IMG/VR virus record: IMGVR_UViG_2671181114_000018
Source: a virus
Taxonomy: Duplodnaviria; Heunggongvirae; Uroviricota; Caudoviricetes
Direction: 5' to 3' (one strand)
Length of the DNA stretch: 29,945 bases
The stretch's first letter is position 1. Each line of letters opens with the position of its first letter. A program made the position numbers and the translations under genes. Below are positions 4,631 to 22,269 of the stretch, one piece after another. The notes below the pieces were generated by a model. The model made no database searches, had not been told where the DNA came from, and was given only the letters and a program-made list of their open reading frames with translations.

Positions 4631-5327
4631 GAATCATTCCCTTTATTCCATCCAGATTGTCACCGACCAGCATCACCGCCGCAGTGTAGACGGCTGACGG
4701 TTGCGGGATATCCTTTACCAGTTCCAGCAGCGTGGTGGCCGTATCACCGGTGCTGGTAAACACCCATGCTCTGGCACTTTTCCCCTGCAAATCATTCAGC
4801 CCGCTGGCCACATCACTGATCAGGTTGTCGCGCAGCTGCGTGAACTCACCCAGTTGCTGCTTTAGTCCGTCCAGGCTGAATCCCGCACTGGCCGCTTTTT
4901 GTGCCTGGCTGACAGCCGCCGCAGACAATGCCGCCCTGCTGGTTGGCACAGACAGCGGAATGGCCACCGGCAACCCCGCCCCGGCTTTAGCGGGGATCTG
5001 CATTTTTTCGATGGCCAGCGCCGCTGCGGATTGTGCCAGGCGTTTTACCTGAGTGAATGCCGGTGCCGGGAAAACATCGACCAGACCGTTGAGACGGGTC
5101 ATAAAATTCTCATGCGTCTGGCCTGTCACCATCATGATCATCACATCGGCATTCCCGCCCGTTCCGGTAAGCCTTTCAGCAAGATAGCTAACAGCATTCA
5201 CCGGGCTGAGATATGCCCCGTTATCCGTCTGTTGCCCCAGACCGTTTATCCATGGATGCGCCGGAACTATGGAACAATTCAGCGCGGCCAGTGAGTCAGT
5301 AAACGCCAGACGCGCTTCACGCCACAT
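4602..5327 (-). CDS. Hypothetical tail/baseplate-associated protein
   Basis: 241-aa ORF between the fibre chaperone and the hub-spike gene, co-oriented and overlapping. No motif recognised; true start may be internal. Confidence 0.3.
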   Translation of the reverse strand: MWREARLAFTDSLAALNCSIVPAHPWINGLGQQTDNGAYLSPVNAVSYLAERLTGTGGNADVMIMMVTGQTHENFMTRLNGLVDVFPAPAFTQVKRLAQSAAALAIEKMQIPAKAGAGLPVAIPLSVPTSRAALSAAAVSQAQKAASAGFSLDGLKQQLGEFTQLRDNLISDVASGLNDLQGKSARAWVFTSTGDTATTLLELVKDIPQPSAVYTAAVMLVGDNLDGIKGMIHDFDPNAGA

Positions 5328-5661
5328 CAGGCACCTCTGGCCAGAAAGGATCCGAAGTATCCACCCTGTTCACCATGACGCTATATCGCTCCCACGCATC
5401 CAGAAGCAGGATCTCTTTTTCGGTCGCCATACCAAGTCTTACAGACCTTTCAAGCAGGGCTATGACAGAATTCGCCTCAGCCAGAAGACGAGATTTATCA
5501 CTCTCAGCCTGCTCCTTTATCTGTTCCGCTGTAAGGGGCTTATTCAGTATTGCCTTCGCTTCCTCTTCAGTTATCGCAATTAACCCGCGGCGGTAGTATT
5601 TTTTATCAGCATCATCTTCATAAGCGTAAATTTCATTTTTACTCGTTTTAAAATACTTCAT
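5317..5661 (-). CDS. Tail fibre assembly chaperone (Tfa; P2 G / Mu U-like)
   Basis: 114 aa directly downstream of the fibre gene (3-nt gap); size and C-terminal '...DPFWPEVPDVA' typical of the enterobacterial Tfa family. Confidence 0.7.
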   Translation of the reverse strand: MKYFKTSKNEIYAYEDDADKKYYRRGLIAITEEEAKAILNKPLTAEQIKEQAESDKSRLLAEANSVIALLERSVRLGMATEKEILLLDAWERYSVMVNRVDTSDPFWPEVPDVA

Positions 5662-5663
5662 CG

Positions 5664-7451
5664 TTATCTTAACTCCGTCCAGGCCCTCAATATCGTAGAG
5701 ACACCAGAAACATCAACCCGGTAGGTAAAGCCCGGTGGGACAATGAAAAACGCGGTTGCAAGCGATGTGTCTAAAGCGGTTGCACCACCACCACCAAATT
5801 CAATCCCATTGATATAAGCATAAAGGTTTGCTGACGTTCCCCCAGTAATTCGGACATATACTGCTATCGGAAACCCTGTGGAATTGGTGTATGTCACCCC
5901 GGTTCCACGAGATGATTTTAAATCCTGTAATGTTTGCCCTTTACCTAGAGATGGGTAAGTTTGTATTGCAGTAGTTACTGCCGCCTGCGGCATGACTAAA
6001 GAATTTGATCCCCCCATTGAATTAACAAGCTGAACAAGACCTGCATTTGTGATAGTTGCCCCGTCCGCTGTGTATTTTGACTGCGCCAGTTCATATGCAG
6101 ATTGCGCCTGTTTCAGCACATAATTTACAGCGGTGGTGGTGGCAGCGGTTTTTGAATCAGGCGCACCTGTATTGTCACTGAGCATGACAATACCTTTCTG
6201 CGACGTTGTCGCTTCAACTGCACTCCATTTCTTTTTAGCAATTTCCGCTGCGGCCATTGCCGTGTCATAAGCAATTTTTACCGCACCTGACGTTGCAGCA
6301 GTCTCGTTACTTTCATCTGTTACTCCACCATTAAGACGAACCAGCCCCTTTTGTGAGGTAGAAGCATCGTAAATACCTATGTTTTGCCTGAATAATGCAG
6401 GGTTAAGGATATCCCCACCATTCCGCTCTTTAGCAAGACGCGCATTGGCATTATCCATCGCGATTTTGACTGCTTTCGGTGTAGCGGCCTGTCCTTCACT
6501 AGTGCTGTCTGTCGCGCTGCTTAACTGGGTGAATCCCTTCGCGCTGGTCGTGGCATCAGGATGATTTCGGGACTGCTCATGCTTTTTAAGCGCATCGCTG
6601 GCCTGTTGTTCGTTCAGCGTCCCTTTGGGCCGTAAATCCGTGATATTGCCATTCACATCAATGCTGGCCACGGCAAACACATAATGCTGTACGCCGTTCT
6701 GCACGTAATCCGTCAGGTTTTCCGCCACGGTGATTTTGCACTGAGCATTCCACATACTGGTAAGCGATCCTGTCCAGCACACATCCAGCCAGACTTTGAC
6801 CGGTTTTGTCGTCACGGTGATATTCTGATTGTCAGCCAGTGACGTACGCAGTCCTGCCACATAGCCGGTACCTTTGGTCACAAAGAACTGATTGCCCGTT
6901 TTACTGACCAGCCAGCCATCGCCAAAGAATGCCGCAGCCCCGTAAATATCCGTGTTTTCCAGGCGCTGACGTTCATCCATTCCGGCCATTCGCGCCGTGA
7001 AATCAATCTGCCAGGTCTCAGCCGGTGTATTAATCCCGGTTTCAGTCTGTGCGCCGTTGTACTCCATCAGAAACGAGCGGGTAAGCACGTTCCCCTGTTG
7101 CCCTTCCGCTGTTTTCAGCTTCTGCTGCACAGGCGCATGAACAATCATGGCCAGGGTGCCACTGGCCTTATTCAGCAGACCGATCCAGTTAAAACTGAAG
7201 TCGCCCACATCCGCGCCCAGAACGGTGGAATACACCACGCCGTTTTCATTCACCACGCCAGTGCGGGTAACAGGCTGCCGGTGCACAATCTGCTCCACAG
7301 GTGGCAGTGCTTCATTCCGGTCAACGGGTGTATCCGGGTTCAGTCCTGGCACATTTGCAAACACAAATTCATCCAGTAACACCGGCTCGCCGGTTGCACC
7401 CTGCTGCGCTTTCCAGTGCTCAAATGCCAGCGTGATAGCTGTCTGTGACAT
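5664..7451 (-). CDS. Tail fibre protein (P2 H-like central motif)
   Basis: 595 aa; internal 'HEQSRNHPDATTSAKGFTQLSSATDSTSEGQAATPKAVKIA' matches the conserved P2 gpH-family motif (HEQSRRHPDA..AKGFTQLSSATNSTSETLAATPKAVK) as I recall it. Followed by Tfa. Confidence 0.8.
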   Translation of the reverse strand: MSQTAITLAFEHWKAQQGATGEPVLLDEFVFANVPGLNPDTPVDRNEALPPVEQIVHRQPVTRTGVVNENGVVYSTVLGADVGDFSFNWIGLLNKASGTLAMIVHAPVQQKLKTAEGQQGNVLTRSFLMEYNGAQTETGINTPAETWQIDFTARMAGMDERQRLENTDIYGAAAFFGDGWLVSKTGNQFFVTKGTGYVAGLRTSLADNQNITVTTKPVKVWLDVCWTGSLTSMWNAQCKITVAENLTDYVQNGVQHYVFAVASIDVNGNITDLRPKGTLNEQQASDALKKHEQSRNHPDATTSAKGFTQLSSATDSTSEGQAATPKAVKIAMDNANARLAKERNGGDILNPALFRQNIGIYDASTSQKGLVRLNGGVTDESNETAATSGAVKIAYDTAMAAAEIAKKKWSAVEATTSQKGIVMLSDNTGAPDSKTAATTTAVNYVLKQAQSAYELAQSKYTADGATITNAGLVQLVNSMGGSNSLVMPQAAVTTAIQTYPSLGKGQTLQDLKSSRGTGVTYTNSTGFPIAVYVRITGGTSANLYAYINGIEFGGGGATALDTSLATAFFIVPPGFTYRVDVSGVSTILRAWTELR

Positions 7452-7460
7452 AAAAACTCC

Positions 7461-8054
7461 TTACAAACCTGCGCTGAATGTCGCGCTTCGGGTTTCCGTC
7501 CCTGCTAACGAAGCCGGATAAACCACATATTCCCCCTGATCCCATCCGGCTCTGATAACCATTTTTTCCGATGTGATCACCTCAAACTGATAACGACGGC
7601 ATGTTCGCCCGTACTGCCGGATTATCTGGATAAGCAGCTGCGTGTTGTCCGCTATCTGGCTGTCTGTCACACGTACCAGGAGCACATCCCAGTCAATACC
7701 CGGCTGACGCTCCCGCAGCTCCACATATCCAATGCCCAGCCGTTCAAAGATGTTGATAAATCCCTCAACGGAACCGGCATCACGCGCATTCACGAAGGCA
7801 AACGCCACCCGTTTGCGGAACAGACTCAATGGCTCACCATCAAAGCGGGTTATGTCCCGGTCATACGCCAGCAGGTTCAGTAATGCCGGTGTGCAGGTCA
7901 GCGGATCAAACTGGTTCAGTGGCCAGGTTATCCAGCCGTAAACCTCCGCCCAGAATCGCCGGGCTGTTTTCAGCAGCTTGTTCGGCTCCCCCTGATTCAT
8001 CCAGGAAGGCAGCACCATCCCGGCCAGCTTTTTCATGAACTCATTCATTCTCAA
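7461..8054 (-). CDS. Baseplate/tail protein (Mu gp48-like, DUF2313 / P2 I-position)
   Basis: 197 aa between the J-like gene and the fibre gene, the conserved position of the P2 gpI / Mu gp48 / YmfQ family. Synteny-based. Confidence 0.5.
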   Translation of the reverse strand: MRMNEFMKKLAGMVLPSWMNQGEPNKLLKTARRFWAEVYGWITWPLNQFDPLTCTPALLNLLAYDRDITRFDGEPLSLFRKRVAFAFVNARDAGSVEGFINIFERLGIGYVELRERQPGIDWDVLLVRVTDSQIADNTQLLIQIIRQYGRTCRRYQFEVITSEKMVIRAGWDQGEYVVYPASLAGTETRSATFSAGL

Positions 8055-9225
8055 GACTCACTACCAGTGACTTCAGGCGCGGCACATTCAGCTCACTGGT
8101 AATGTCACCCAGTGAAAAGGACAGCGAATCCGCCAGCGCAAAGGTTTTGTGGATCTCCCGTCCCAGCTGAGAAAACGAGAACCGCGAATATGGCCACGTC
8201 TTTCTGACGTCAAAATCAGCGTTTTCACGAAAAGCACAGCGGATCATGTTTTCAATCCCGGCCTTCAGGCTGTTACGTTCGTCGTCTGTCAGGTTGGCCA
8301 GATTTCTGACGTACACCGTCACCGCCAGATCGTGGCGAGTTTCCGGCATGGCGTAACACTGCATATCGTCACCGTGGCCGTGATGCCCCTGCGTGTTGAT
8401 GTAATCATTCACCGCATTCACAAACGGCGCGGAAGTCACCCCGCTGTCCAGCAATAAATAGGCATTTGCGGTACCCGGTCCCCTCGGCGCTTCATGCTCA
8501 AAGAAAATCCGGTCAATACTCAGCCCGGCAACACCGGCAATCATTGAACGGTAAACCGCATCCGTGTGGTAATTGCCCACCAGGTTGAACTGGTTGCGGC
8601 AGCGTTCACGCAGTTCATCATCACTTTCTTCATCGGCACCCGGCACTGTCAGCCAGTTTTCCTCGCTGGCCACATGACTGATGCCGTCAACGGCCACAGG
8701 TAAAATGCGGTAATACCCTGGCGCAAGGTTATAGGCTCCCCCGGCTCCGGTGGCTTTCACCGGCAGCAGGGCACTGGCCGTGCCGGAAGGGATCACCACA
8801 TCGGCCGTGGTCGCCAGTTCGTACACCCTGCCGTTAATGCGTTCAGTCTGGATAACTGTCCCGGCCTTAACCGTCACAACGGCTTTGGTATCCTCCTTAA
8901 AGAAACGGATCACACCCTGTGCAGCGCTGGCGGGTTTCGCCGTCACGTTCACCGCCCAGGCCAGCAGACGCAACATGCTCCCGCTGGCCGTGGCCACAAA
9001 CATATTGGCCAGTACCGTGAACACCAGAACATCTTTCAGCCACATCACCGGTGCAGTCACAATGGCTGTGATTAAGCGCCAGAACGGTGACATGCGGGAT
9101 GTATTGGTGATGATGCCCTCCTCAGCCGCAATAGCATTAAAGCGATCCCGTACTTCAGCTTCTGTCACCGGCATCCCGCTGGTTTTCACTACTTCCTCAA
9201 AATCAACCTGGGGCTTTTCCGTCAT
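8041..9225 (-). CDS. Baseplate J-like protein (P2 J / Mu gp47-like)
   Basis: Track ORF is 8041-9279 (412 aa); likely start is the internal Met 'MTEKPQVDF' at 9225, giving an ATGA overlap with the upstream gene's stop. Size and position fit Baseplate_J. Confidence 0.6.
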   Translation of the reverse strand: MTEKPQVDFEEVVKTSGMPVTEAEVRDRFNAIAAEEGIITNTSRMSPFWRLITAIVTAPVMWLKDVLVFTVLANMFVATASGSMLRLLAWAVNVTAKPASAAQGVIRFFKEDTKAVVTVKAGTVIQTERINGRVYELATTADVVIPSGTASALLPVKATGAGGAYNLAPGYYRILPVAVDGISHVASEENWLTVPGADEESDDELRERCRNQFNLVGNYHTDAVYRSMIAGVAGLSIDRIFFEHEAPRGPGTANAYLLLDSGVTSAPFVNAVNDYINTQGHHGHGDDMQCYAMPETRHDLAVTVYVRNLANLTDDERNSLKAGIENMIRCAFRENADFDVRKTWPYSRFSFSQLGREIHKTFALADSLSFSLGDITSELNVPRLKSLVVSLENE

Positions 9226-9551
9226 AAATCCACCTGATAAGAAAGTGTGCCAAAGTCGTATGTACTGGCAGTCACCCAAAGGCGTTTCTGACTTTCTTCA
9301 TTGATTTCAACTGTGCCAGGCACTATGCGTTCATCATTTTCAACCAGTAATTCAAGCTGGGTAAAAATATCTGCCCTCAACGTCGGGCTTCGCTCCGCAA
9401 TCAATTGTGTTGCCAGTCCGCTTTCAATAATGGCGTGCACAATATCCTGCCCGATACTTTTACGGTTATTGCATAATTCAGGCTCATGACCTGCATTCAG
9501 TGAGAAATCACCATTATTAATAAGCAGGTCAATATAAAGAAATTCACTCAC
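9222..9551 (-). CDS. Small baseplate protein (Mu gp46-like / GPW-position)
   Basis: 109 aa directly between the tape measure and the J-like gene, translationally coupled on both sides. Synteny-based. Confidence 0.5.
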   Translation of the reverse strand: MSEFLYIDLLINNGDFSLNAGHEPELCNNRKSIGQDIVHAIIESGLATQLIAERSPTLRADIFTQLELLVENDERIVPGTVEINEESQKRLWVTASTYDFGTLSYQVDL

Positions 9552-11587
9552 GCATTAAGCTCCTGCCATTCCATTAGCTGGGAGGGTGAAAGTGCTTCTT
9601 TGGTATGAAAATGCACTTCACCAATTTTACGGCTGTTATCCGTCACTGATTTAGAGTTACTGCTTATTGTTTTACTGATACCACCGCGATCCACATCCTT
9701 TAACTTTCCACCTGTTGAAAGGGTATTGGCAGTCAATGTTTCACTGGTATTTGCAGTATGGTTGTTCTGTATTAATGAAGGTACCACCCCACCTGTAATT
9801 TTATTTATTTCCGGCGAAACGGTTGTGGACAGGTCAATATTGACGCCCGGAATTTTATTCAGTTTTTCAACAATCCAGTTCCACGACTTCAGAAATCCGC
9901 TTTTAATGGTCTGCCAGACGTTATCAAACAGGGAAACAATACCGCTGGCCATCCCGCTTAATGCCTGTGAGGGTGAGAACCCGGCCAGCAGCGCAATAAA
10001 ACTGTTCCAGCCGTCTTTAATCCACTGCCATGCAGCGGAGAACACGCCGGCAAGCCATTCCACCACGCCCGCCACCGCCGTAAACGCTGCAGTATTCATC
10101 ACCGCCGCTTTCACATCATCCCAGTGTTTAATCAGCAGGTAACAGCCCGCAGCCAGCAGGGCTATCGCCCCGATAACCAGCAGCACCGGCCAGCTCATCA
10201 GATTAATACCAATGCCGGCCATAATCGCCGCCATGCGTACGGCCAGCAGCGTGCCACGAAGGAATTTAAGCGTGATGTTCCATGCCGCGACGGCTTTTGA
10301 GGCAATCCAGACAGTGGCGGTGTATATCTTCGTGACTGAAGTCAGCGTCTTCCAGAGAGCAATCGCGCCCAGCTTAATAAGTTTTGAGACGCCCAGAACG
10401 ATGTTCGCTACCGCGCCGGCAGCAGCAAACCCCAACAACGCCATAGCCGCATAGCCGATAACACGCGCAATGTTGGGAAACAACTGCATCCAGCGGGCAA
10501 AGGTCTGCCCCATATCGGCCAGGCGATTCAGCACCGGATACAGGACGGGGATCAACGTCAGCCCAATGACGGTCTGAATAGACTTAAGGATCTGAACAAA
10601 GCGATCCCACGGTTTCACCAGTTTCCCGGCCATCTCCTGTGTACGCTTCAATCCGTCAGAACCGCCCAGCTCAGTGATATTACGTTGCAGTAAGGCCACA
10701 TTGCCGTAAAGATGTTTCACCACCGCTGAACTGTCACCAAATGCCGCATCCAGCTCCGCCTGGGCTTTCAGGTTCCCTTCCAGGCTTTTGCCATACTTAC
10801 CCTGTAACTTGATCAGCATTTCAGGCATGGACAGCATTTTGCCGGTGGCATCCGTAAAGGACAGCCCCAGCTTTTTACCGCCCTCAATGGCTCCGGTCAT
10901 GAAGCCTTCATAAGCGCTGCTGGCTTCCGTTCCCAGCGTTCGGTTAAGCTGCCCCAGTACGGCCAGTTGTTCATCCAGCCCCACGCCGTAGTTGGTACCC
11001 ACGCCGCGCGCACCTTCCATCAGGTCTTTGATGACGCCCATTTCAGTACCGAAGACCTTGCGCATGTACACCATTTTTCCGGCCAGTTGTTCAGCAAACT
11101 GGACTTTACCCAGCCGTGCCGCCTCGGCGGAAAAGTTGCCGTACATCTGCCCCATAAACTCTGCGGTATCGGCAGATGTTGATTTCAGTGCAAACGCCAG
11201 CGTGTTGGCGACTTTCGTCACCTTCGGCAGTTCATTCCCGGTCAGGCCGGCAATGGCGGTGTTAATACTTTCCGTGGACTGGACAAACTCCACCGCGCTG
11301 GCGCCGTAGGTCATACTGAACCGCAACGCATCACGCTGGACGGCCTTTAAAGCCTGATCATCAATGCCTTTTGCGGCTGCGTCATTCAGCGCGTCATACA
11401 TCTCAATAGCCGGCGACAACGCCCCTTTGATGGCCATCCCTGTGCCGGCTAAAGCCAGCGCACCGCCCCCAATCTGCGTAAAGGCCACTTTCGATTTTTC
11501 AGCAAAGCCTGTAACACTGCTCTGCACCTGCTTTAACGGGCGCGTCAGTTTATCAATCAGGCTTAAGGTAAAATCTAACTGTTTCAT
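9548..11587 (-). CDS. Tail tape measure protein
   Basis: 679 aa, Ala/Gly-rich helical N-half, several hydrophobic segments in the middle (e.g. 'LLVIGAIALLAAGCYLLI'), directly downstream of the frameshifted chaperone. Confidence 0.8.
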   Translation of the reverse strand: MKQLDFTLSLIDKLTRPLKQVQSSVTGFAEKSKVAFTQIGGGALALAGTGMAIKGALSPAIEMYDALNDAAAKGIDDQALKAVQRDALRFSMTYGASAVEFVQSTESINTAIAGLTGNELPKVTKVANTLAFALKSTSADTAEFMGQMYGNFSAEAARLGKVQFAEQLAGKMVYMRKVFGTEMGVIKDLMEGARGVGTNYGVGLDEQLAVLGQLNRTLGTEASSAYEGFMTGAIEGGKKLGLSFTDATGKMLSMPEMLIKLQGKYGKSLEGNLKAQAELDAAFGDSSAVVKHLYGNVALLQRNITELGGSDGLKRTQEMAGKLVKPWDRFVQILKSIQTVIGLTLIPVLYPVLNRLADMGQTFARWMQLFPNIARVIGYAAMALLGFAAAGAVANIVLGVSKLIKLGAIALWKTLTSVTKIYTATVWIASKAVAAWNITLKFLRGTLLAVRMAAIMAGIGINLMSWPVLLVIGAIALLAAGCYLLIKHWDDVKAAVMNTAAFTAVAGVVEWLAGVFSAAWQWIKDGWNSFIALLAGFSPSQALSGMASGIVSLFDNVWQTIKSGFLKSWNWIVEKLNKIPGVNIDLSTTVSPEINKITGGVVPSLIQNNHTANTSETLTANTLSTGGKLKDVDRGGISKTISSNSKSVTDNSRKIGEVHFHTKEALSPSQLMEWQELNA

Positions 11588-12032
11588 CCTGAACCTTTAA
11601 ACGCGGTGCTTATTCCGTTAGCAACCGCTATACGCGTATTTTCCCAGTGGCGATTATCCAGCCAGATAGCGGCGGAAATATCATCCACGGAATCCTGACC
11701 ATGCGGTAAATAATGACGCCGTAATATCAGATATTGTTCGAGTCCGTTCTGTTCAATTGCCCGGACTCGCTTTGTCAGTTTTTTACTTCAATTTCCAGTT
11801 CGGGCGCATAAAGCTCATTAATTTTCCCTGCAAGCTGAAGCGCTGCCCCCGGACGTTTAAGAATATCTTCCAGCGCTTCTTTACATTCTGGTACAACAAT
11901 GCGCATAAGATAACTATGGGCTGGAGCTACTTTATTATCCATCGCCATTTCGTTGATGAATTTATTATAAGCCGTCTGATTTGGTTCAAAGGTAATGTCT
12001 TTTTTACATACAACCAGATTAATTTTTTCCAT
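11584..12032 (-). CDS. Tail assembly chaperone, long form made by programmed -1 ribosomal frameshift (P2 E+E' / lambda G-GT analogue)
   Basis: Minus strand reads gtA AAA AAC tga: perfect X XXY YYZ heptamer (plus 11778-11784) as the last codons. The -1 frame from there is open for about 64 codons across the otherwise ORF-free 11588-11774 gap and stops at TGA (11584-11586) overlapping the tape-measure ATG. Confidence 0.6.
11775..12032 (-). CDS. Tail assembly chaperone, short form (P2 E-like)
   Basis: 85-aa ORF immediately upstream of the tape measure gene, ending '...EIEVKN*' with a slippery heptamer at its 3' end. Confidence 0.6.
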   Translation of the reverse strand: MEKINLVVCKKDITFEPNQTAYNKFINEMAMDNKVAPAHSYLMRIVVPECKEALEDILKRPGAALQLAGKINELYAPELEIEVKN

Positions 12033-12318
12033 AAATAATATTCTCTCTTAAATTAATTTCATCAACCAGCGTGTTATGACGTGCAGCACATTGCCCGTAT
12101 AACTCCAGATATAGTGTCAGTAATTCCGCCGCATCTTTTCCCTGCGTGCCATTCAGGCGCGGCAGCTGCGTGGCACATTTAGTTTTCAGGTTTTCCTGAT
12201 AACGTACGTTCGGTACTGGTGACGGCATCGTTGTACATGCTGACAAAATCATCAGACAGGCACTTATTGGTAAACACCGGCTTAACCACTTCCGTACGGA
12301 TTTCACGCGGTGGCGCAT
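12019..12318 (-). CDS. o-spanin (Rz1-like outer-membrane lipoprotein), overlapping the i-spanin in another frame
   Basis: Lipobox 'LMILSAC' followed by Pro-rich 'TTMPSPVPN'; the ORF starts inside the 3' half of the i-spanin gene and extends past it. True start may be internal. Confidence 0.55.
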   Translation of the reverse strand: MRHRVKSVRKWLSRCLPISACLMILSACTTMPSPVPNVRYQENLKTKCATQLPRLNGTQGKDAAELLTLYLELYGQCAARHNTLVDEINLRENIIYGKN

Positions 12319-12511
12319 TTTTCAGTGCCTCCAGTTTGTCTTCCAGCCGGCGACCAGAAATACCGGCAATATCAGCCAGCCTTTCCCCGGTCGCAGTGGC
12401 CGCTTTTGAGACGGTCAGATCGATGCTGTCCCGTTGCCAGCCGGCCGTTTTCCAGCCGGCTAAAAATGCCAGAACAAGGGTGAATAACCAACCTGACACC
12501 ACGCGATCCAT
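12179..12511 (-). CDS. i-spanin (Rz-like)
   Basis: 110 aa with N-terminal transmembrane segment 'WLFTLVLAFLAGW' and a charged helical periplasmic part; immediately downstream of the endolysin. Confidence 0.6.
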   Translation of the reverse strand: MDRVVSGWLFTLVLAFLAGWKTAGWQRDSIDLTVSKAATATGERLADIAGISGRRLEDKLEALKNAPPREIRTEVVKPVFTNKCLSDDFVSMYNDAVTSTERTLSGKPEN

Positions 12512-12852
12512 CAGCGCACCCCGTTGTGTTCCAGGCTGAAATGATTACCATCAGGACGGGTTTTAAAACGTCCGCCCCAGCTCCCGCCCAGCGATTCCCA
12601 GTATTCCCCCAGTGGCAGATAATCTTCCGTTCGGGTTTTGTATTCGCCCTTCACAAACAGATTAAAATCCACGGCCAGACGCTGGGTGTGCAGACTGTTG
12701 GAAATACCGCTGCCCTTCTTCGCGTTCAGTGCCGCCTGTTCCGGCGTCCGGTACGCCTCACCGAACGTCAGCCACATCCCGTTGGCGTTGGCATACTGGA
12801 TCAACAAAGCAATCATTGATGTAAACCGTTGTTGTTTCTCGCTCAGCGTCAT
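12511..12852 (-). CDS. Endolysin, peptidase M15 family (L-alanyl-D-glutamate peptidase type)
   Basis: 113 aa with 'HTQRLAVD' (H-x6-D) and 'DGNHF' zinc-ligand motifs typical of M15/VanY-type endolysins; lies between holin and spanins. Confidence 0.75.
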   Translation of the reverse strand: MTLSEKQQRFTSMIALLIQYANANGMWLTFGEAYRTPEQAALNAKKGSGISNSLHTQRLAVDFNLFVKGEYKTRTEDYLPLGEYWESLGGSWGGRFKTRPDGNHFSLEHNGVR

Positions 12853-13145
12853 TTCCCTGCCCCTTTATCAAAAATCCCTGTAAGGCCACGTTTGCGCAGC
12901 CAGGCTTCCACCACGTTCTGCCCCAGAATACCCAGCGCGGAACCAATGCCGGCCAGCGCAAGTGGGTGAATATCCGGGACAAAGTACAGTGCCACGCCGG
13001 CAATTAGTGACAATCCGCTGCCAACAATGACACGGCCAGTGACCAGCCGAAGGGTGATCGGCTCGTCGCTGTTGAGTAATTTCCCCAGTGCAATCATCGC
13101 CCCCATGACAGCCAGTGCAATGAACCCTTTTTCATACTCCTGCAT
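12849..13145 (-). CDS. Holin (putative)
   Basis: 98 aa with 2-3 hydrophobic segments ('FIALAVMGAMIALG', 'VIVGSGLSLIAGVALYFV', 'LALAGIGSALGILG') and a charged C-terminus; directly upstream of the endolysin. Confidence 0.6.
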   Translation of the reverse strand: MQEYEKGFIALAVMGAMIALGKLLNSDEPITLRLVTGRVIVGSGLSLIAGVALYFVPDIHPLALAGIGSALGILGQNVVEAWLRKRGLTGIFDKGAGK

Positions 13146-13157
13146 CCCTGCTGCCTC

Positions 13158-13613
13158 TTATCCAATCAGGTTTTCCGTGGCTTCCGCTTCCAGATACGGC
13201 ACCCCGTTGATGTTCACGAACTTAGGACTTGTCACGAAGTATTTGATTTTGTGCGTGGATACGCTGCCACCCTTCGGATCACCATCCAGTACACTGTTGA
13301 GCTGGAGCTTGTTCCCGAAGGTTTCCACCTTCATTTCTTCGCTGCCGGCTTTGGCGTAAAAAAGGAAATCCACCGGGGGAATACCCCGCCATGAACCCGC
13401 TGAACGGGCTTTGGCCGTCAGTACCTGAAGCACTTTTGAGCTGACTTCAATTTCCCCTTCGGCGGCAACATCGCCGTCAATATAGCCGTCCGGGACACCG
13501 CGTGTCTGGGCTGCGGCGCTGTTGTCGGTGATATCCAGCGAAATTTTTTCAATGTGGATCAGGTCGCCGTCCACGTAGACGTCAAAGGACATCCCTGAAA
13601 TACGTTTGGTCAT
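13158..13613 (-). CDS. Tail tube protein (putative)
   Basis: 151-aa ORF directly downstream of the putative sheath gene, overlapping stop/start. Sheath-tube gene-pair logic; no motif verified. Confidence 0.5.
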   Translation of the reverse strand: MTKRISGMSFDVYVDGDLIHIEKISLDITDNSAAAQTRGVPDGYIDGDVAAEGEIEVSSKVLQVLTAKARSAGSWRGIPPVDFLFYAKAGSEEMKVETFGNKLQLNSVLDGDPKGGSVSTHKIKYFVTSPKFVNINGVPYLEAEATENLIG

Positions 13614-14737
13614 GCGCTGGCCTCCAGACTCGCATCCAGTAACAGACTGATGGTGATTTGCAGTGGTACTTCATACGTACGCACCACAATGTAGATATCC
13701 ACCGCCTTTTTGTTCTTCCAGACAATGGTCACGTCACCGTCCTGCGGTGGCTTCACTTCGCCCGGAAATGACACGCCGTTAATACTGGCCGCCGTGGACA
13801 TTTCACGCAGCGGACGGGCAAACAGCGTCTGGTGTGCGGCAATACTGCCCGGTGTACTGTTCAGTGAGCGATCGGCAATCTTACCGATGGCCAGCAGACG
13901 GACACGACGTGCTGCCTTATCCACAATACGCAGCGTCTCAATGGACTGATAATCACCGCCCTCAACGTCGAGTGTACGACCGTCAGACCAGTAAAAGCCG
14001 TCATAGTCCGGATACCACATCGGCACGCTGTAGCGCTGTGCCTCCAGCGCCTGAAGGGTCGCCAGCTCCAGCGTTGCCCCTGCTCCATCTTTCGGCAGTT
14101 CGTCGCTACCCAGGCTCAGTAATGGTCCGGTTTTTACCCGCGCCGGACTGTCAGCGATGGTAACAGCGCGATTACAGAGGCGACCGGCAAGCACGCCCGG
14201 ATCATTCCCCCAGAGGCGCGGAACCAGTTGCACCGATTTTTCAGCAATACCCTGCTGAAGGGTGGACAGACGTTTCAGATAATCCGCCTGTGATTCATCC
14301 TCCTGCATTCCCTGTACGGCCAGAATGAACCACACCCAGCGGCCGTATTTTGCAATCAGTTCAGATCGCAGCGTTGCCGCCTGGTTAATCTGCTCTTTTG
14401 CCGCCACATCATCAGACAGCACCACACCTTCCACCGAACAGGAAACCTGTGCAGCTTTGACGGCATCAACCCACGCCCCCGGCTCACTGTCAGCGGCCAG
14501 CACATGGATAAATCCCCACCAGTTCTGTCCGGCGTTCGCCAGTGCGGCCAGAACATCGCTTTTTAACGGGCTGTCCCCCTCACCCAGCAGCGCATCAAAA
14601 TCGCTCTGTGCGTTAACTGCCTGTGTTTTCCCTACATTTTTGGTTCCCGTACCGATAAACAGCAGCGTGCGCTCCACTTCCGTGGTTTCACCCAGCAGCT
14701 GATTTACCTGGTTTACGGTCACAATTGGCCAGGTCAT
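13610..14737 (-). CDS. Tail sheath protein (putative)
   Basis: 375-aa ORF followed by a small tube-size ORF, downstream of the tail-completion genes. Synteny-based. Confidence 0.5.
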   Translation of the reverse strand: MTWPIVTVNQVNQLLGETTEVERTLLFIGTGTKNVGKTQAVNAQSDFDALLGEGDSPLKSDVLAALANAGQNWWGFIHVLAADSEPGAWVDAVKAAQVSCSVEGVVLSDDVAAKEQINQAATLRSELIAKYGRWVWFILAVQGMQEDESQADYLKRLSTLQQGIAEKSVQLVPRLWGNDPGVLAGRLCNRAVTIADSPARVKTGPLLSLGSDELPKDGAGATLELATLQALEAQRYSVPMWYPDYDGFYWSDGRTLDVEGGDYQSIETLRIVDKAARRVRLLAIGKIADRSLNSTPGSIAAHQTLFARPLREMSTAASINGVSFPGEVKPPQDGDVTIVWKNKKAVDIYIVVRTYEVPLQITISLLLDASLEASA

Positions 14738-15438
14738 GATCTCCCCCTGATATCCTGCGCGTTAACATCCCAGCCGAACCCGATAGCCTGAAGCTGTCGC
14801 GCCAGCGCTTTGTTAAAGTCATCCTGACCGATCCCCAGAAATCCCCTGGCAGGTAAATCTATCTGCCAGGATGTTTTGACCGGCTTGTCCTCCAGTATCC
14901 GGATAAGCAAACCTGCCTGTCTGGCGGTCATTTTTTCCTGTATTTCCTTATATCCGGGCTTGCGCCAGCGCTTGCCGCGCCTGACTTTATACCCGGCCTT
15001 ACGCAGACGTTTCGCCTGTCGCAGTGATGCAGGTTTATCCCCCTGCTCACGGCCTTCCACCTGCTTGCGGTTGACGGTCACGCTCATGCCGTTCTGCTGG
15101 ACATAACCCACCACGCCGGCAGGCAGATTTCCCTTCGCATTCCGGTAATTACCACCGGTCAGATACAGCCTGACAGACTCCGTTTCTGGCATTTCACGGA
15201 TGCGGATAAGTTTCGGCATATTGCGCAACATTTTGCCTTTACGCCGGGTCTGTCTCCCCTGCCACTTATCCCCCTCCGGTGACTGCTGATTACGCACATT
15301 GCGCTTTGCTGCGGCTTCCACGCCGTATTTCGCCATTCGCCACAGCAGCCGGCGACGTTTGGCAGGAGGCAAATCCAGCTTTTTCAGCGCCTCCTGTAGC
15401 TGGCGGAACTGTTCCTGGTTCAGTTCGCCATTTATCAT
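14734..15438 (-). CDS. Virion morphogenesis / tail completion protein (P2 S-like)
   Basis: 234 aa, very basic C-proximal region, positioned after the R-like gene as in P2 (L-...-R-S). Confidence 0.5.
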   Translation of the reverse strand: MINGELNQEQFRQLQEALKKLDLPPAKRRRLLWRMAKYGVEAAAKRNVRNQQSPEGDKWQGRQTRRKGKMLRNMPKLIRIREMPETESVRLYLTGGNYRNAKGNLPAGVVGYVQQNGMSVTVNRKQVEGREQGDKPASLRQAKRLRKAGYKVRRGKRWRKPGYKEIQEKMTARQAGLLIRILEDKPVKTSWQIDLPARGFLGIGQDDFNKALARQLQAIGFGWDVNAQDIRGRS

Positions 15439-15917
15439 TCCTGCCCCTCATTGACGGGGATCACCGTCACCTCATCCGCCGTCCAGACTTCGGGATTTGC
15501 CAGCTTCCAGCGCTGGCCATCAAACGGGATCTGACCTTTGGGATCGGGGATCAGATTCAGTTCCTCCACCATTGGCAGCGTCACCACCATGATGGCGGTT
15601 TCCTGGTCGATGGTTTCAATATCAAATTCCGGCAGTTCGGCATCAATGCCGGTTTCCTCAAAGAGCGCCCGCTCATCCTGGCAAAGCCACGACATAAACA
15701 ACGCCATCAGGATTTTGGGATCGTACTCGCGGTAGGGATAACGCTCCCACGTCAGCACAGCGTTATAGCGAATGATGGCAATGCGATACTGCCCCAGCCC
15801 GGTGTCACGCTGTGCCGGGATGAATGCGATTTCATCCATCTGGCTGTCAAATCCCTGCATTGCCCGTTTGGGCATGTTCGCAATGAGAAAATCCGTTAAT
15901 TCGGTGAGCTGGCTCAT
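15435..15917 (-). CDS. Tail completion protein (P2 R-like)
   Basis: 160 aa immediately after the head completion gene, translationally coupled; size matches P2 gpR. Confidence 0.5.
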   Translation of the reverse strand: MSQLTELTDFLIANMPKRAMQGFDSQMDEIAFIPAQRDTGLGQYRIAIIRYNAVLTWERYPYREYDPKILMALFMSWLCQDERALFEETGIDAELPEFDIETIDQETAIMVVTLPMVEELNLIPDPKGQIPFDGQRWKLANPEVWTADEVTVIPVNEGQE

Positions 15918-16405
15918 ATCATGGCCACCGTGATGCGTTTCAGTCCTTTAATACGCCGTACCGCCAGCGTGGATTCCGCTATCAGGCTGGATCGGGTTTC
16001 ATCGCTTTCCTGCCCCGGATGGCTTTCACGGCGACCAACAGACGCAAATTCGCCCATCAGGTCAGCTTTGGCGCGGGCAAAAACAGCCTTGCGGTAACGG
16101 GCGCACAACAGATTTTCACCGTCAATCTCAACGCCCGGAACGTCCGCCGCGCTTGCATGGCCACTGAGGCGACAATCTGCCACTACCCTGACCAGATCAT
16201 CATTGATTTCACCGGCTGCGGTCAGCAGCGCCTGACGGATGGTGGCTGCGTCGATATCGGCAGGAATAGCACGCTGGGACTGAAAATCCTTCACGCTCAG
16301 GTCTGGCCAGAAGCCATCATTCGTCAGAATGGCATCATCAAAATCAATTGCAGTTCCGCTGAACATCCTGTTCCTCCGGAAAAAAGCGGGCTGGCCGGTT
16401 TCCAC
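15914..16405 (-). CDS. Head completion/stabilisation protein (P2 L-like)
   Basis: 163 aa, last gene of the O-N-M-L capsid block; position and size as P2 gpL. Confidence 0.6.
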   Translation of the reverse strand: METGQPAFFRRNRMFSGTAIDFDDAILTNDGFWPDLSVKDFQSQRAIPADIDAATIRQALLTAAGEINDDLVRVVADCRLSGHASAADVPGVEIDGENLLCARYRKAVFARAKADLMGEFASVGRRESHPGQESDETRSSLIAESTLAVRRIKGLKRITVAMI

Positions 16406-16459
16406 GGGCGATACGCTGATGCGATCCCCTCCACCGCGCCCGCTTTCGGGTCGGTAGTC

Positions 16460-16651
16460 TTATTCGCCGCTGACTGCGGCCTGAATCTCACCTTCTTCAA
16501 ACCACGAATCAACCGCACGGCCATCAGCAGCCTGATAGTGGATCAGATACTGATTGCAGCAGTGGGTGTATTCTGCACGGGCTTTCACATGCCCTTTCTC
16601 ACCGCTGACAGAAATCTTCACTGCTTGCCCAAGTGAATGTTTAAACCCCAT
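16460..16651 (-). CDS. Small hypothetical protein (possible moron between M and L)
   Basis: 63-aa ORF filling the gap between the M-like and L-like genes; not part of the canonical P2 set. Confidence 0.3.
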   Translation of the reverse strand: MGFKHSLGQAVKISVSGEKGHVKARAEYTHCCNQYLIHYQAADGRAVDSWFEEGEIQAAVSGE

Positions 16652-16669
16652 TTTTGAACTCTCCGATGA

Positions 16670-17368
16670 CTATTTTTCAAGCGCCCGCAGACGGGCAGCG
16701 ATACGCTGCAACATCGTGCCAACGCCACATTTAGGGTCGAATCCCTTCGCCTGCTCCAGCAAATCCTTCGCCCGGAGCAATACATCCCTGTCTTCCGTTG
16801 CCGCTGCGCGTGGCTCTCCGTTCTCATCGCGTAGCAGGTGCAGACCGGCAAACTTCACGTATTTGGCCTTAATGACCTCATACACATTCCAGTGCTGCAT
16901 AACGTTTCCCAGCGTGCGGCTGAAATACGGCTCCACATCCTGCCCCTGTGCGGCTTCCGTCTCCGCCCAGGCCAGTACCGTATCGGCCACAAACACCGGG
17001 AACGCACTGCCGAACGCGGCCGGGGTTTCCTGTCCCCGTTCGATGGCCACATCCGCCCAGTCCAGCGCCTGATCAAACTGGCCAGTATCAAACAGCCAGA
17101 CGACACACCAGGCAAAAACGGGATTCTGATGCGTACTGTCACTTTCCAGCCAGGTTTGTGCGGTCGGCATCCAGCGGGGCAACAGCACATCGCGCTTGAA
17201 CTCCATACGCTCTGCACGGTTGCTAATCGCTGCGGCCGCTGCCACATCCTTTTCCAGCGCGGCAATCTGGACATGCAGACTGGTTTCGCTGTCAAGCGAC
17301 TGCTGCTGACGCAGTAACCGCTCCGCCTCTATACGTGCACTGTGTCGCTGTGCCGGTGACAGTTGCAT
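16670..17368 (-). CDS. Terminase endonuclease (small) subunit (P2 M-like)
   Basis: 232 aa immediately downstream of the major capsid gene; order O-N-M-L and size match P2 gpM. Confidence 0.65.
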   Translation of the reverse strand: MQLSPAQRHSARIEAERLLRQQQSLDSETSLHVQIAALEKDVAAAAAISNRAERMEFKRDVLLPRWMPTAQTWLESDSTHQNPVFAWCVVWLFDTGQFDQALDWADVAIERGQETPAAFGSAFPVFVADTVLAWAETEAAQGQDVEPYFSRTLGNVMQHWNVYEVIKAKYVKFAGLHLLRDENGEPRAAATEDRDVLLRAKDLLEQAKGFDPKCGVGTMLQRIAARLRALEK

Positions 17369-17378
17369 CAGTTCCCCC

Positions 17379-18398
17379 TTATGCGCCCGCTGATACCGCG
17401 CCGATTGTCACCGCGCTTTCATCAAATGCGGCATACAGTTCCGGATATTCCACGGCATAACCTTCATTACGCAGATATTTGTTTTCATACTGCTTACGGT
17501 CTTCCACAAACTCCGCTTTACGCTGACGCGTGCCGCGCTGGGTGTAGATGTGCAGGTTAGGCAGTGTGGTAACAATCATGCGCTTGCCAGGCATAAACGG
17601 CGGAACATAAGCCGTACGGCCGGCGATACTGTCAGACAGCAGCTGTGCGGCAATCTTTTCAGTGGGTTTATCGGCTTTCTGGTACAAACGGAACGACTCC
17701 GCCGCCACCAGGTCAGCCCCCACCAGAACCACCAGACGCGGGTCATTACGGAACTGTGCCGGAATTTTGGCGTTGATAAGGTCGGATGCCATCGCATCGA
17801 GTGACACATAATCGCCTTTACCGTCACCATCGAGCACAACCGCATCGGTGACGATCTGCTTACCGCCATCCCACTCTTTAACAATCTGGTGCCAGCCTTT
17901 ATTCACATCTTCGCCGTTCGGGTTCTTCTCGGCATCCGTGGTCTCTGCAACAGATTTCCCGTTGAAGCCGATACGCAGCATATCCAGTGCAAACGCCTGA
18001 TTGGTGAAATCCTGGACGCGCTGGAAAAACTCGTTTTCATCGCCGGCGTTTGCCCATACAGAAAGCAACTGCCAGGTCAGTGCAGCACATGAATCCGTCT
18101 CAACCAGCTTGTAATCATTGCCGCTGACACCTACTTTCTTACGGAAACGGCCATCCAGCACACGCCCGGTATACAGGCCAGAACTGCCAACCGGTACCAC
18201 CTGTCCCTGTAACTGGTCAACATCAGCGACCGTCAACAGATTCAGGAAAGAAGATTCTTCCAGCAGTGCATTACGCATCTGGGTTTCTTTCGGATCGGAC
18301 AGCGCAAACCAGCGGTCGCCATCGGTCGCACCGTAGGATTCACGCAGCCCGTTGTGGTACTGACGCAGAAACTCACGGGCTTTCGCATTTAATTGCAT
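17379..18398 (-). CDS. Major capsid protein (P2 N-like)
   Basis: 339 aa between scaffold and small terminase; size and position as P2 gpN. Confidence 0.8.
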   Translation of the reverse strand: MQLNAKAREFLRQYHNGLRESYGATDGDRWFALSDPKETQMRNALLEESSFLNLLTVADVDQLQGQVVPVGSSGLYTGRVLDGRFRKKVGVSGNDYKLVETDSCAALTWQLLSVWANAGDENEFFQRVQDFTNQAFALDMLRIGFNGKSVAETTDAEKNPNGEDVNKGWHQIVKEWDGGKQIVTDAVVLDGDGKGDYVSLDAMASDLINAKIPAQFRNDPRLVVLVGADLVAAESFRLYQKADKPTEKIAAQLLSDSIAGRTAYVPPFMPGKRMIVTTLPNLHIYTQRGTRQRKAEFVEDRKQYENKYLRNEGYAVEYPELYAAFDESAVTIGAVSAGA

Positions 18399-18432
18399 AT
18401 TCTTTTTCCTTAAAGAAAAGTCGTGTTATCCC

Positions 18433-19272
18433 TTACAGGAAATTGAAGCCTTTCTTGCCCTTGCTGAATTTCTTGTCCGGCAACTGGGTAACTTTGTTAT
18501 TCAGCTTGGTGAAGTTCTTCACCAGCTCCGGCAGATTACCCACCAGACGCGCAAAATCTTCGGTATCCACCACTTCCTTAACGGTGTCCACATCTTCCTG
18601 CACATCAGATACTGCTTCTTCCGCTTCACCCAAACGGGTTTCAATGGCAGATACACGCTTATCAATCGCATCCAGCGCTTCAGCGAGCGCCTGTAAAGCA
18701 TCAGGCTGTGATGCTTCCTGCTCCGTTGTCTCTTCTGGTTCTTCAATACTGAAAAAATGGCGCCAGCCCTTTTTCGCGGTCTTTGACATTCCCTTTTCCT
18801 TTTTAAATTCCCTGACTTCATCAAACGCCAGCGGCTTATACGGGCCGACGCGTTTTCCTTTGGTGCGGCTGAAACGTAGCCGAGTGGTACCTACCCCAGC
18901 CGGACTGTCAGTAACAGCCAACCCCTCAAGATAGGTTTTGCCTGTACTTCTGAAATTACCGTCCGGGGTAAACTCCGGTGATAAAAATAAAAGCTGACCT
19001 TTTGCATTTGCCTGAAGCAATGAAATAGCCGGGCAAAGACGGGCATATAAACGCAAGATCCCTTCATCATCACGTTCAGCTTTTAATTCCAGTACCTCAC
19101 CCATATTTCCGTAATTACGGGTATGTTCCGGCCATAACAAGGCAGGATAAAGTGAGTAGTCATATAACTCGGCAGCATCCAGTAACCATTGTTCCTCAAT
19201 GGTTCGCTTATCAACCGTTTCACCCGCAGTGGCGATACAAATCCAGTTTGTTGCCAGCTGTGAACCTGACAT
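18433..19272 (-). CDS. Capsid scaffolding protein (P2 O-like)
   Basis: Track ORF 18433-19332; probable start at internal Met 'MSGSQLATNW' (19272). Acidic coiled-coil C-terminal half typical of gpO scaffold; first gene transcribed divergently from P-Q. Confidence 0.7.
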   Translation of the reverse strand: MSGSQLATNWICIATAGETVDKRTIEEQWLLDAAELYDYSLYPALLWPEHTRNYGNMGEVLELKAERDDEGILRLYARLCPAISLLQANAKGQLLFLSPEFTPDGNFRSTGKTYLEGLAVTDSPAGVGTTRLRFSRTKGKRVGPYKPLAFDEVREFKKEKGMSKTAKKGWRHFFSIEEPEETTEQEASQPDALQALAEALDAIDKRVSAIETRLGEAEEAVSDVQEDVDTVKEVVDTEDFARLVGNLPELVKNFTKLNNKVTQLPDKKFSKGKKGFNFL

Positions 19273-19415
19273 ATTGCCTCCCTTCCTGCTGCGGTTTTCA
19301 GTATCGCCAATTAAATTAACCGCCGCATTCACTTCATTTCGGATATAAACAATTAGCCGAACACATCAGAAATAAAGCAGGATTTAATAAAGAAGCGCCC
19401 GTGCATAATGTGTGC

Positions 19416-22216: not shown

Positions 22217-22269
22217 TGTCCGCAAAAAGGCTAAAATATCATCGTTTTCCAACTTCCGGAGCGATGGAT

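Follow-up and report, generated by a model that had tools for sequence, protein, structure and literature searches.

Gene content of the locus

The window, that is the whole 29,945-nucleotide stretch of IMG/VR record IMGVR_UViG_2671181114_000018, carries on its minus strand four genes for a holin, an M15 endolysin, an i-spanin and an o-spanin, bracketed by the tail tube gene (13158-13613) on the upstream side and by the tail assembly chaperone gene (11775-12032) on the downstream side. The first-pass annotation had described a lysis cassette embedded in the tail operon, and this description stands, each of the four ORFs having independent family support. Its limits were drawn as 11775-13145, a range that takes in the chaperone gene, which is not a lysis gene; the lysis cassette proper occupies 12019-13145 on the minus strand. 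None of the four ORFs is disrupted, and their motifs, start sites and overlaps are conserved. Plus-strand and alternative-frame ORFs across the cassette gave no Pfam matches and were treated as shadow ORFs.

Holin and endolysin

The holin gene (12849-13145, minus strand) has its ATG 12 nt after the stop codon of the tube gene and encodes a protein of 98 aa that matches PF04550 (Phage_holin_3_2) with an E-value of 7e-40; its 135.7 bits clear the cutoff of 25, and for comparison P2 Y reaches 143.6 bits in the same family. The PHROG search returned the holin family phrog_175, and blastp against P2 gpY gave 43% identity (E=2e-20). On these matches we assign the protein to the P2 gpY family (PF04550), as a homologue of P2 Y. 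Hydrophobic segments are found at residues 7-24 and 39-56, and a third one at 62-79 is weaker, marginal and glycine-rich, a profile identical to that of P2 Y. The net charges of −1 at the N-terminus, +1 in loop 1, −1 in loop 2 and +3 at the C-terminus appear compatible with an N-out/C-in orientation. What is encoded here is a predicted small membrane protein with a basic C-terminus, beside a putative muralytic enzyme. A dual-start/antiholin motif was considered and rejected, since only one Met precedes the first hydrophobic segment and a LysA-like gene is absent.

The endolysin gene (12511-12852, minus strand; 113 aa) overlaps the holin stop codon with its ATG (ATGA), and its product scores 41.9 bits against PF13539 (Peptidase_M15_4; cutoff 25) and also matches endolysin PHROGs. 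In agreement with the first-pass annotation, it belongs with the M15 peptidases and not with the K type of P2, which is unrelated to M15; we class it by its motifs and profile match as a LAS-type zinc peptidase of the Pfam subfamily M15_4 (VanY-like). H55-x6-D62 and D101-x2-H104 are invariant and line up with SNHNYGVAVD and D..HF of Ply500; they supply the M15 zinc-ligand pattern, H-x(3-6)-D with a distal H, and an acidic catalytic residue. The protein was also matched to the LAS fold. Neither a signal peptide nor a SAR domain is present. The small L-alanoyl-D-glutamate peptidases of the M15/LAS group (T5 EndoT5, RB49, the Ply500 EAD, LysB4 and Serratia ChiX) are alike in their single-domain zinc peptidase fold and share the H-x6-D ... 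D-x2-H motif with the window endolysin, but their identity to it is only 15-23%, and phmmer with the endolysin as a single-sequence query against the PDB returned zero matches, so that a profile was required. The M15 homologue is found in 322 phage records of diverse genera and is annotated as endolysin in unrelated phages; the 113-aa family comprises more than 3,200 clusters at 90% identity, and M15_4 endolysins also occur in unrelated Vibrio, Pseudomonas and Aeromonas phages.

The overlapped spanin pair

The i-spanin gene (12179-12511, minus strand; 110 aa) shares 1 nt of its ATG with the endolysin stop codon (TGATG). Its product matches the Rz-like spanin family phrog_1152 (E=2.5e-34) and has, by hydropathy, a predicted N-terminal membrane anchor at about residues 4-20 and one conserved cysteine, C84; 75 unique homologues are encoded at the same position. 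The Pfam search gave no match for the i-spanin, and profile comparison with P2 LysB and with the i-spanins of HP1 (orf25) and K139 was not significant.

Within the i-spanin gene, 193 nt from its start and in the +1 frame, begins the o-spanin gene (12019-12318, minus strand), with GGAGG located 9 nt 5' of its ATG. The two genes overlap by 140 nt, as the first-pass annotation had recognised in calling them overlapping and out of frame, and the o-spanin runs 160 nt past the i-spanin stop codon and overlaps the chaperone start by 14 nt. The identification as an o-spanin was borne out by the lipobox of the 99-aa precursor, L-S-A-C with a predicted lipidated Cys28 and Thr at +2; the predicted mature form has 71 aa with conserved C48 and C77. 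Every one of 70 unique o-spanin homologues, the most divergent with 37% identity, keeps a lipobox, which is far beyond chance. The protein matches phrog_2425 (E=2e-32) and falls below the threshold of PF23793, the LysC family (19.2 bits against a cutoff of 27), whereas hhalign comparison with P2 LysC and the K139-type o-spanins gave a probability of 97% and E=1e-10 over 83 columns. From these profile comparisons we place the o-spanin as a remote LysC relative rather than a Pfam-level family member.

The pair has the overlapped two-component architecture of the P2 LysB/LysC type. A census of spanins (Kongari 2018) lists for Cronobacter phage ESSI-2 an overlapped pair with an i-spanin of 110 aa, an o-spanin of 99 aa and a 140-bp overlap, a geometry identical to that of the window.

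Flanking tail genes and expression

The tail tube protein (151 aa) matches PF10772 (Phage_HP1_Orf24; E=1.9e-62) and phrog_1182, and the chaperone (85 aa) matches PF10963 (Phage_TAC_10; E=3.4e-34). Identity to HP1 amounts to 55% for the sheath, 60% for the tube (orf24) and 43% for the chaperone (orf26), while no similarity was found between the window tail genes and P2 FI, FII or E. The chaperone gene contains a slippery heptamer, A_AAA_AAC, at 11784-11778, after which the −1 frame is open to a TGA at 11584 that overlaps the ATG of the tape measure gene (9548-11587, minus strand; 679 aa; PF10145, phrog_28). The heptamer is followed after 8 nt by a hairpin of 8 bp (−15.5 kcal/mol, z=−3.6), and among 158 related chaperone genes the heptamer is AAAAAAC in 124 and AAAAAAG in 30. 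The small ORF after the chaperone (11584-11784, minus strand), as read from the sequence and its translation, is therefore a predicted −1 frameshift extension and not a separate gene, and the predicted fusion product would have 148 aa.

Co-transcription and translational coupling of the four cassette genes with the structural genes are likely, judging from the 12 nt that separate the tube and holin genes and from the ATGA, TGATG and 14-nt overlaps of neighbouring genes in one compact late operon. A scan of 9000-20000 for sigma-70 promoters and intrinsic terminators gave site counts below those of shuffled sequence; within the cassette and around it, neither an internal promoter nor an attenuator was convincing. 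Matches to TGT-N12-ACA, the Ogr site of P2 type, numbered 5 against 7.6 expected, none of them lay in the divergent region between scaffold and terminase, and a late promoter was not located. When the whole window was scanned for tRNAs and Rfam families, nothing was found.

Comparison with known phages

The closest systems compared were Escherichia phage ESSI2_ev239 (Evevirus) and Cronobacter phage ESSI-2 (Seongnamvirus), with 88.6% and 76.7% nucleotide identity, respectively, over 9000-15500. Both have the gene order of the window: sheath, tube, holin, M15 endolysin, i-spanin/o-spanin, chaperone and tape measure. RefSeq labels a holin, an endolysin and an Rz-like spanin among the two phages, although the ESSI-2 record is without a holin annotation, and the o-spanin is unannotated in ev239 and 'hypothetical' in ESSI-2; otherwise they differ from the window in sequence divergence only. 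Phages of the ESSI-2 type are plaque-forming isolates (PMC6969025).

That the cassette is decaying or non-functional, as part of a defective prophage or tailocin-like element, we regard as very unlikely. Tail-only derivatives of the lineage do exist, at two Pseudomonas loci (L056 and L059). However, the four ORFs of the window are intact with conserved motifs, starts and overlaps, plaque-forming phages have been isolated that are related to it at 81-89% nucleotide identity, and elsewhere the window carries scaffold, capsid, terminase, portal, Ogr, Cox, repressor and primase genes.

In Haemophilus phage HP1 and Vibrio phage K139 the cassette likewise lies between the tube (HP1 orf24) and the TAC_10 chaperone (HP1 orf26); this position of the HP1 lysis genes is published, and HP1 hol/lys at the same position is an experimentally shown lysis system (PMC7312051). 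In these two phages the holin is a PF16080 pinholin and the endolysin a SAR-type GH24 lysozyme, neither of which is related to the window holin or endolysin, and K139 has in addition a DksA-type zinc-finger gene before the holin. In K139, the o-spanin and the chaperone are annotated as a single fused ORF.

P2 has the order L-X-Y-K-lysA-lysB-lysC-R-S, with FI-FII-E-T contiguous, and its cassette, between L/X and R/S, is four genes upstream of the window position. The first-pass annotation had taken this difference as a distinct late-operon layout. The position does differ from that of P2, but the layout of the window is the standard HP1-like one of the Peduoviridae seen in HP1, K139, ESSI-2 and ev239, with an HP1_Orf24 tube, the cassette, a TAC_10 chaperone with −1 frameshift, the tape measure and DUF2590. 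The proposal of a swapped lysis module also holds in part: the endolysin differs in kind from P2 K, and no equivalent of P2 LysA is found in the window, but the holin is of the same family as P2 Y, the o-spanin is a remote relative of LysC and the overlap is P2-like, with the o-spanin in the +1 frame in both and an overlap of 140 nt in the window and 146 nt in P2. Between P2 LysB and the window i-spanin there is no detectable similarity. Because the tail genes are HP1-type and HP1, K139, ESSI-2 and ev239 share the position of the cassette, the window is not a special rearrangement.

Conservation of the cassette position

Ninety-eight related loci keep the cassette as a unit. A lysis cassette fills the tube/chaperone slot in 71 of 76 species-level loci and in 77 of 77 viral loci, and the loci bearing it span Enterobacterales, Pasteurellaceae, Aeromonas, Vibrio, Pseudomonas and Pseudoalteromonas. 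The four-gene arrangement identical to that of the window recurs in 76 of 77 viral loci and, among the 17 enterobacterial genome loci where a holin was recognised, in 14. At the Pseudomonas loci L056 and L059, tube and chaperone are adjacent and no head genes lie upstream.

A recent, idiosyncratic insertion or transposition of the cassette into a P2-type tail operon in the window phage alone would be in keeping with the GC content, which dips to 0.46-0.50 over 11000-12500 compared with about 0.55 in the flanks, and with a holin that is P2-Y-like in a position that is not that of P2. We nevertheless consider such an event highly improbable: the tail genes into which the cassette would have moved are HP1-type and not P2-type, and both the occupied slot and the four-gene order recur at the frequencies given above, the slot from Enterobacterales to Pseudoalteromonas.

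The contents of the slot vary, with at least five endolysin families, at least three holin families and chimeric combinations across the survey. The window combines a P2-Y holin with an M15_4 endolysin, Aeromonas loci combine a lambda-S holin with a P2-K endolysin (the K type in the slot of Aeromonas prophages has 53% identity to P2 K), and Pasteurellaceae have the pinholin with the SAR-type GH24 lysozyme. Five endolysin families alternate in the slot, each time with holin- or spanin-like genes as neighbours. Throughout the HP1-like clade the slot itself is conserved, but its contents are mosaic.

This alternation also argues against the M15 peptidase being a virion-associated (tail) peptidoglycan hydrolase for cell-wall penetration, with the flanking small genes forming no lysis cassette. 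M15 domains are present in some virion-associated lysins too, and the gene does lie between the tube and the chaperone of a tail operon. Yet the protein has only 113 aa and is without a structural domain, a gpY-family holin and a spanin pair directly adjoin it, unrelated phages have homologues of it that carry an endolysin annotation, and the HP1 gene at the homologous position is an experimentally shown endolysin (PMC7312051). The chance that it is a virion component thus appears slight in the extreme.

Taken together, we are confident that the window represents an almost complete prophage of an ESSI-2/HP1-like temperate myovirus (Peduoviridae), with a canonical holin-endolysin-spanin cassette in the usual tube/chaperone slot of its lineage. 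Direct observation covers the presence of the genes, their families and motifs, their conservation and their synteny. The cassette is already known as such, being ordinary, intact and in the published position for the ESSI-2/HP1-like lineage.

Lysis model and implications

Lytic activity, bond specificity, membrane topology and transcription are inferred, the lysis mechanism from the families to which the cassette members belong. The gpY-type holin, with its three segments, would build up in the inner membrane and trigger hole formation, through which the cytoplasmic 113-aa zinc M15 peptidase, having no export signal, would exit. By analogy with its nearest structural relatives, the endolysin would cut the peptide stem of peptidoglycan, with L-Ala-D-Glu as the most likely bond. 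Lastly, the i-spanin in the inner membrane and the o-spanin, a lipoprotein of the outer membrane, would join into a complex across the periplasm and disrupt the outer membrane.

A more tentative proposal, which we hold to be possible but on balance doubtful, is that the tube/chaperone junction is a dedicated lysis slot, and/or that the overlap between o-spanin and chaperone couples translation. The conserved 3' end of the tube gene and 5' end of the chaperone gene may serve as recombination anchors, with holins, endolysins and spanins swapped piecewise between unrelated phages. Through the tight overlap where the o-spanin gene stops and the chaperone gene starts, translation of the chaperone and tape measure might be coupled to that of the lysis genes.

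The locus matters chiefly for correct annotation: the window is not a rearranged P2 but a prophage of the ESSI-2/HP1-like kind, and the 99-aa ORF that is unannotated or 'hypothetical' in the relatives is the o-spanin. A compact Gram-negative endolysin of 113 aa could have practical interest, although it is not new. The ideas of a lysis slot and of translational coupling have apparently had no systematic description, and both would extend the well-known mosaicism of phages.

Gene order and packing of the lysis cassette

Between 9500 and 16000, the ORF listing of the window gives a closely packed series of minus-strand genes, whose identities were assigned by Pfam and PHROG scans and whose packing was read directly from the sequence. 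The series runs from the sheath (13610-14737, 375 aa; DUF2586, phrog_907) and tube genes (13158-13613, 151 aa; Phage_HP1_Orf24), through a holin (12849-13145, 98 aa; Phage_holin_3_2, PF04550, E=7e-40), an endolysin (12511-12852, 113 aa; Peptidase_M15_4, 41.9 bits where the cutoff is 25, and endolysin PHROGs), an i-spanin (12179-12511, 110 aa; phrog_1152 Rz-like spanin, E=2.5e-34) and an o-spanin (12019-12318, 99 aa; phrog_2425, weak LysC match), to the tail assembly chaperone (11775-12032, 85 aa; Phage_TAC_10) and the tape measure (9548-11587, 679 aa; PhageMin_Tail). From the tube stop codon to the holin ATG is a distance of 12 nt, the holin stop overlaps the endolysin ATG as ATGA, and the endolysin stop overlaps the i-spanin ATG as TGATG. 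The o-spanin ATG is found 193 nt inside the i-spanin gene in the +1 frame, preceded by GGAGG at 9-nt spacing, and the o-spanin runs 14 nt past the chaperone ATG before it ends. The ORFs, their database matches and the sequence reading establish that the four-gene cassette described in the first-pass annotation is real; the sole correction is that its range of 11775-13145 takes in the chaperone gene, the cassette proper being 12019-13145.

A canonical -1 slippery heptamer, A_AAA_AAC, directly precedes the chaperone stop codon and is conserved in 154 of 158 chaperone relatives. An 8-bp hairpin lies 8 nt downstream (z=-3.6), and the -1 frame (11584-11784, minus strand) is open up to a TGA overlapping the tape-measure ATG, so that a frameshift would yield a fusion of 148 aa. 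RefSeq enters this extension in Escherichia phage ESSI2_ev239 (ev239) as a separate 'hypothetical protein'.

The element and its relatives

Elsewhere, the window has genes for terminase, portal, scaffold and capsid, for head and tail completion (gpL and gpR, respectively) and for an S-like protein. These are joined by genes for baseplate J, the tail fibre and its assembly proteins, HP1_ORF34 and a gp5-like spike, and by those for a zinc-finger protein of the Ogr/Delta type, a Toprim primase/replicase, Cox and a repressor with an HTH motif. This gene content identifies the window as the genome, complete in its essentials, of a temperate myovirus. By megablast its nearest relative is ev239 (Evevirus; 98% coverage, 88.6% identity), followed by other ESSI2_ev phages and Cronobacter phage ESSI-2 (Seongnamvirus), and the region is present in 39 of 5,426 complete E. 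coli genomes at 80-91% identity. ESSI-2-like phages have been isolated as plaque-forming temperate phages, and their prophages are widespread in Citrobacter, Enterobacter and Salmonella (PMC6969025). That relatives form plaques, and that the ORFs and motifs of the cassette are intact, contradicts a reading of the cassette as decaying.

Two further minus-strand ORFs depart from the backbone GC content of ~55%. A 454-aa ORF (1-1365, 40% GC), beside the baseplate/spike genes and extending past the left end, carries an FRG domain (Pfam) and matches the PADLOC candidate defence family PDC-S15 (E=3.7e-9), so that a role in defence, or as prophage cargo, is possible. A 335-aa ORF (22591-23598), from an island of 37% GC that separates the ogr-like gene from the primase/replicase, has no Pfam match and only weak LmuB-like PADLOC matches (E=5e-5), and is probably a moron.

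Properties of the lysis proteins

The endolysin has the motifs S-L-H55-x6-D62 and D101-G-N-H104, which do not vary among 25 aligned homologues and are at least 95% conserved in 54 unique relatives. In a PDB profile search they align with those of the Listeria phage L-Ala-D-Glu peptidase Ply500 (E=0.004), and the top Foldseek match is ChiX, a Serratia L-Ala-D-Glu endopeptidase; the scores are moderate but all agree, and consistently indicate a LAS/M15 fold. The protein is an M15 peptidase unrelated to P2 K, as first annotated. Hydropathy analysis found no hydrophobic segment in it, hence no signal or SAR domain, so that a hole-forming holin is required. The alternative that it is a virion-associated lysin is unlikely, given its small size, the flanking holin and spanin pair, and the precedent of Haemophilus phage HP1.

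The 98-aa protein proposed as holin does not lack candidate transmembrane helices: hydropathy gives strong segments at 7-24 and 39-56 plus a marginal, glycine-rich one at 62-79, the same profile as P2 gpY. Its charges (N-terminus -1, loop 1 +1, loop 2 -1, C-terminus +3) fit a predicted N-out/C-in three-segment topology.

The i-spanin has a single N-terminal hydrophobic anchor (residues ~4-20) and a conserved Cys84. The o-spanin N-terminus comprises a basic region, a hydrophobic core and the lipobox L-S-A-C with Cys28, followed by Thr, i.e. no Asp at +2; Cys48 and Cys77 are also conserved. This lipobox, whose presence the first-pass annotation had left to be checked, is retained in 70 of 70 unique homologues, the most distant at 37% identity, and this argues strongly for a real gene in the overlapped frame. 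The ESSI-2 pair in the spanin census of Kongari et al. 2018 has the same geometry as the window pair (overlapped, 110 and 99 aa, 140-bp overlap; PMC6139136 supplement).

Gene content, motifs, conservation and synteny are what our analysis demonstrates. On the paradigms of lambda, P2 and HP1, the cassette would be co-transcribed with the late structural genes, and the holin would build up and then trigger; the cytoplasmic M15 peptidase would be set free and cut peptide stems, the bond probably being L-Ala-D-Glu. As in those paradigms, the spanin complex would then disrupt the outer membrane. A scan for internal promoters and terminators gave no signal above shuffled expectation, and a late promoter was sought but not found. 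Although the window has an Ogr/Delta homologue (22216-22545), no P2-type Ogr dyad TGT-N12-ACA is present in the divergent region between the scaffold and terminase-portal operons (19333-19400); this lineage may use late promoter signals unlike those of P2. The late operon has a single sizeable non-coding gap (16406-16669, minus strand, 264 nt), between the small terminase and head-completion genes, and ev239 has a 63-aa hypothetical gene annotated in the matching gap.

Layout compared with P2 and HP1-like phages

Unlike the window, P2 has its lysis genes between L/X and R/S (L-X-Y-K-lysA-lysB-lysC-R-S) and keeps FI-FII-E/E'-T contiguous, so the contrast drawn initially is factually right. P2 is, however, the wrong reference, the tail genes being HP1-type: sheath, tube and chaperone are 55%, 60% and 43% identical to those of HP1, and the window tail genes show no detectable similarity to P2 FI, FII or E. 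HP1-like and P2-like viruses have already been split by their differing tail genes (Lavigne et al. 2009, PMC2771037). In RefSeq, ev239 and ESSI-2 share the order tube, holin, endolysin, Rz-like spanin, chaperone and tape measure, and the same slot is used in HP1 (orf24 tube, hol, lys, orf25, orf26, orf27) and Vibrio phage K139 (orf25 tube, zinc-finger gene, holin, endolysin, orf29, orf30, tape measure). The HP1 position is stated in the literature, with hol and lys shown experimentally to be a pinholin and a SAR endolysin (PMC7312051); the holins and endolysins of HP1 and K139 are unrelated to those of the window. The annotation is correct but ordinary; cassette and position were already known for the lineage.

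The proposal of a module swapped relative to P2 stands for the endolysin but not for the holin, o-spanin or spanin architecture. The holin is a gpY homologue of the same Pfam family (43% identity over 86 aa, E=2e-20). The o-spanin family, below the Pfam LysC threshold, aligns to P2 LysC and K139-type o-spanins (hhalign probability 97%, E=1e-10), and the window and P2 both have overlapped +1-frame spanins (140 nt in the window, 146 nt in lysB/lysC). LysA is absent, and profile comparison of the i-spanin gave no significant similarity to LysB or HP1 orf25. By these comparisons, the swap is confined mainly to the endolysin.

Survey of the tube-chaperone slot

An alignment of five tube proteins retrieved 80 species-representative genomic loci and 80 viral contigs, in which tube-chaperone ORFs were classed by iterated HMMs, with representatives checked against Pfam. 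Both flanking genes were found in 76 genomic loci, with a 1.0-1.6 kb insert in 71, an occupancy that contradicts a recent, idiosyncratic insertion. The endolysins were GH24 Phage_lysozyme (30 loci; Pasteurellaceae, Pseudomonas), M15_4 (16; Enterobacterales), P2-K type, 53% identical to P2 K and with a lambda-S-type holin (10; Aeromonas and relatives), M15_3 (9; Oceanimonas, Pseudomonas), Pesticin-like lysozyme (2; Pseudoalteromonas) and unrecognised (4). In the viral set of close relatives, a PF04550 holin accompanied M15 in 77 of 77 informative loci.

In Aeromonas and relatives (L022-L031, L040, L045), the slot holds a DksA-type zinc-finger gene, a PF05106 lambda-S-type holin, the P2-K-type endolysin and a LysC-type o-spanin, a chimeric combination different from that of the window. 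Five Pseudomonas loci have no cassette. In the HP1-type tail clusters of L056 and L059 (Pseudomonas and gamma proteobacterium L18, ~3380-8850) the tube-chaperone gap is 52-65 nt, and upstream of the L056 sheath are host-like rather than head genes; these two look like tail-only clusters and may be tailocin-like derivatives. In L057, L058 and L060 the slot holds only an 83-84-aa membrane/coiled-coil ORF. K139 orf30 (L004, 10799-11377) is annotated as one 192-aa ORF, with a LysC-type o-spanin at 21-89 and a TAC_10 chaperone at 110-192; the two may truly be fused, or the single ORF may come from an error of sequencing or frame or from a wrongly called start. In the window these are two genes in different frames with a 14-nt overlap.

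The window endolysin shares 99% identity with a protein of Citrobacter freundii, and its family comprises more than 3,200 90%-identity clusters across Enterobacterales. The M15_4 endolysin is also found in 322 phage records, with Vibrio, Pseudomonas and Aeromonas among the hosts, a spread that fits horizontal exchange of just the enzyme gene. Taken together, the occupancy of the slot and its varied endolysins indicate that the slot is ancient and general, and its contents mosaic.
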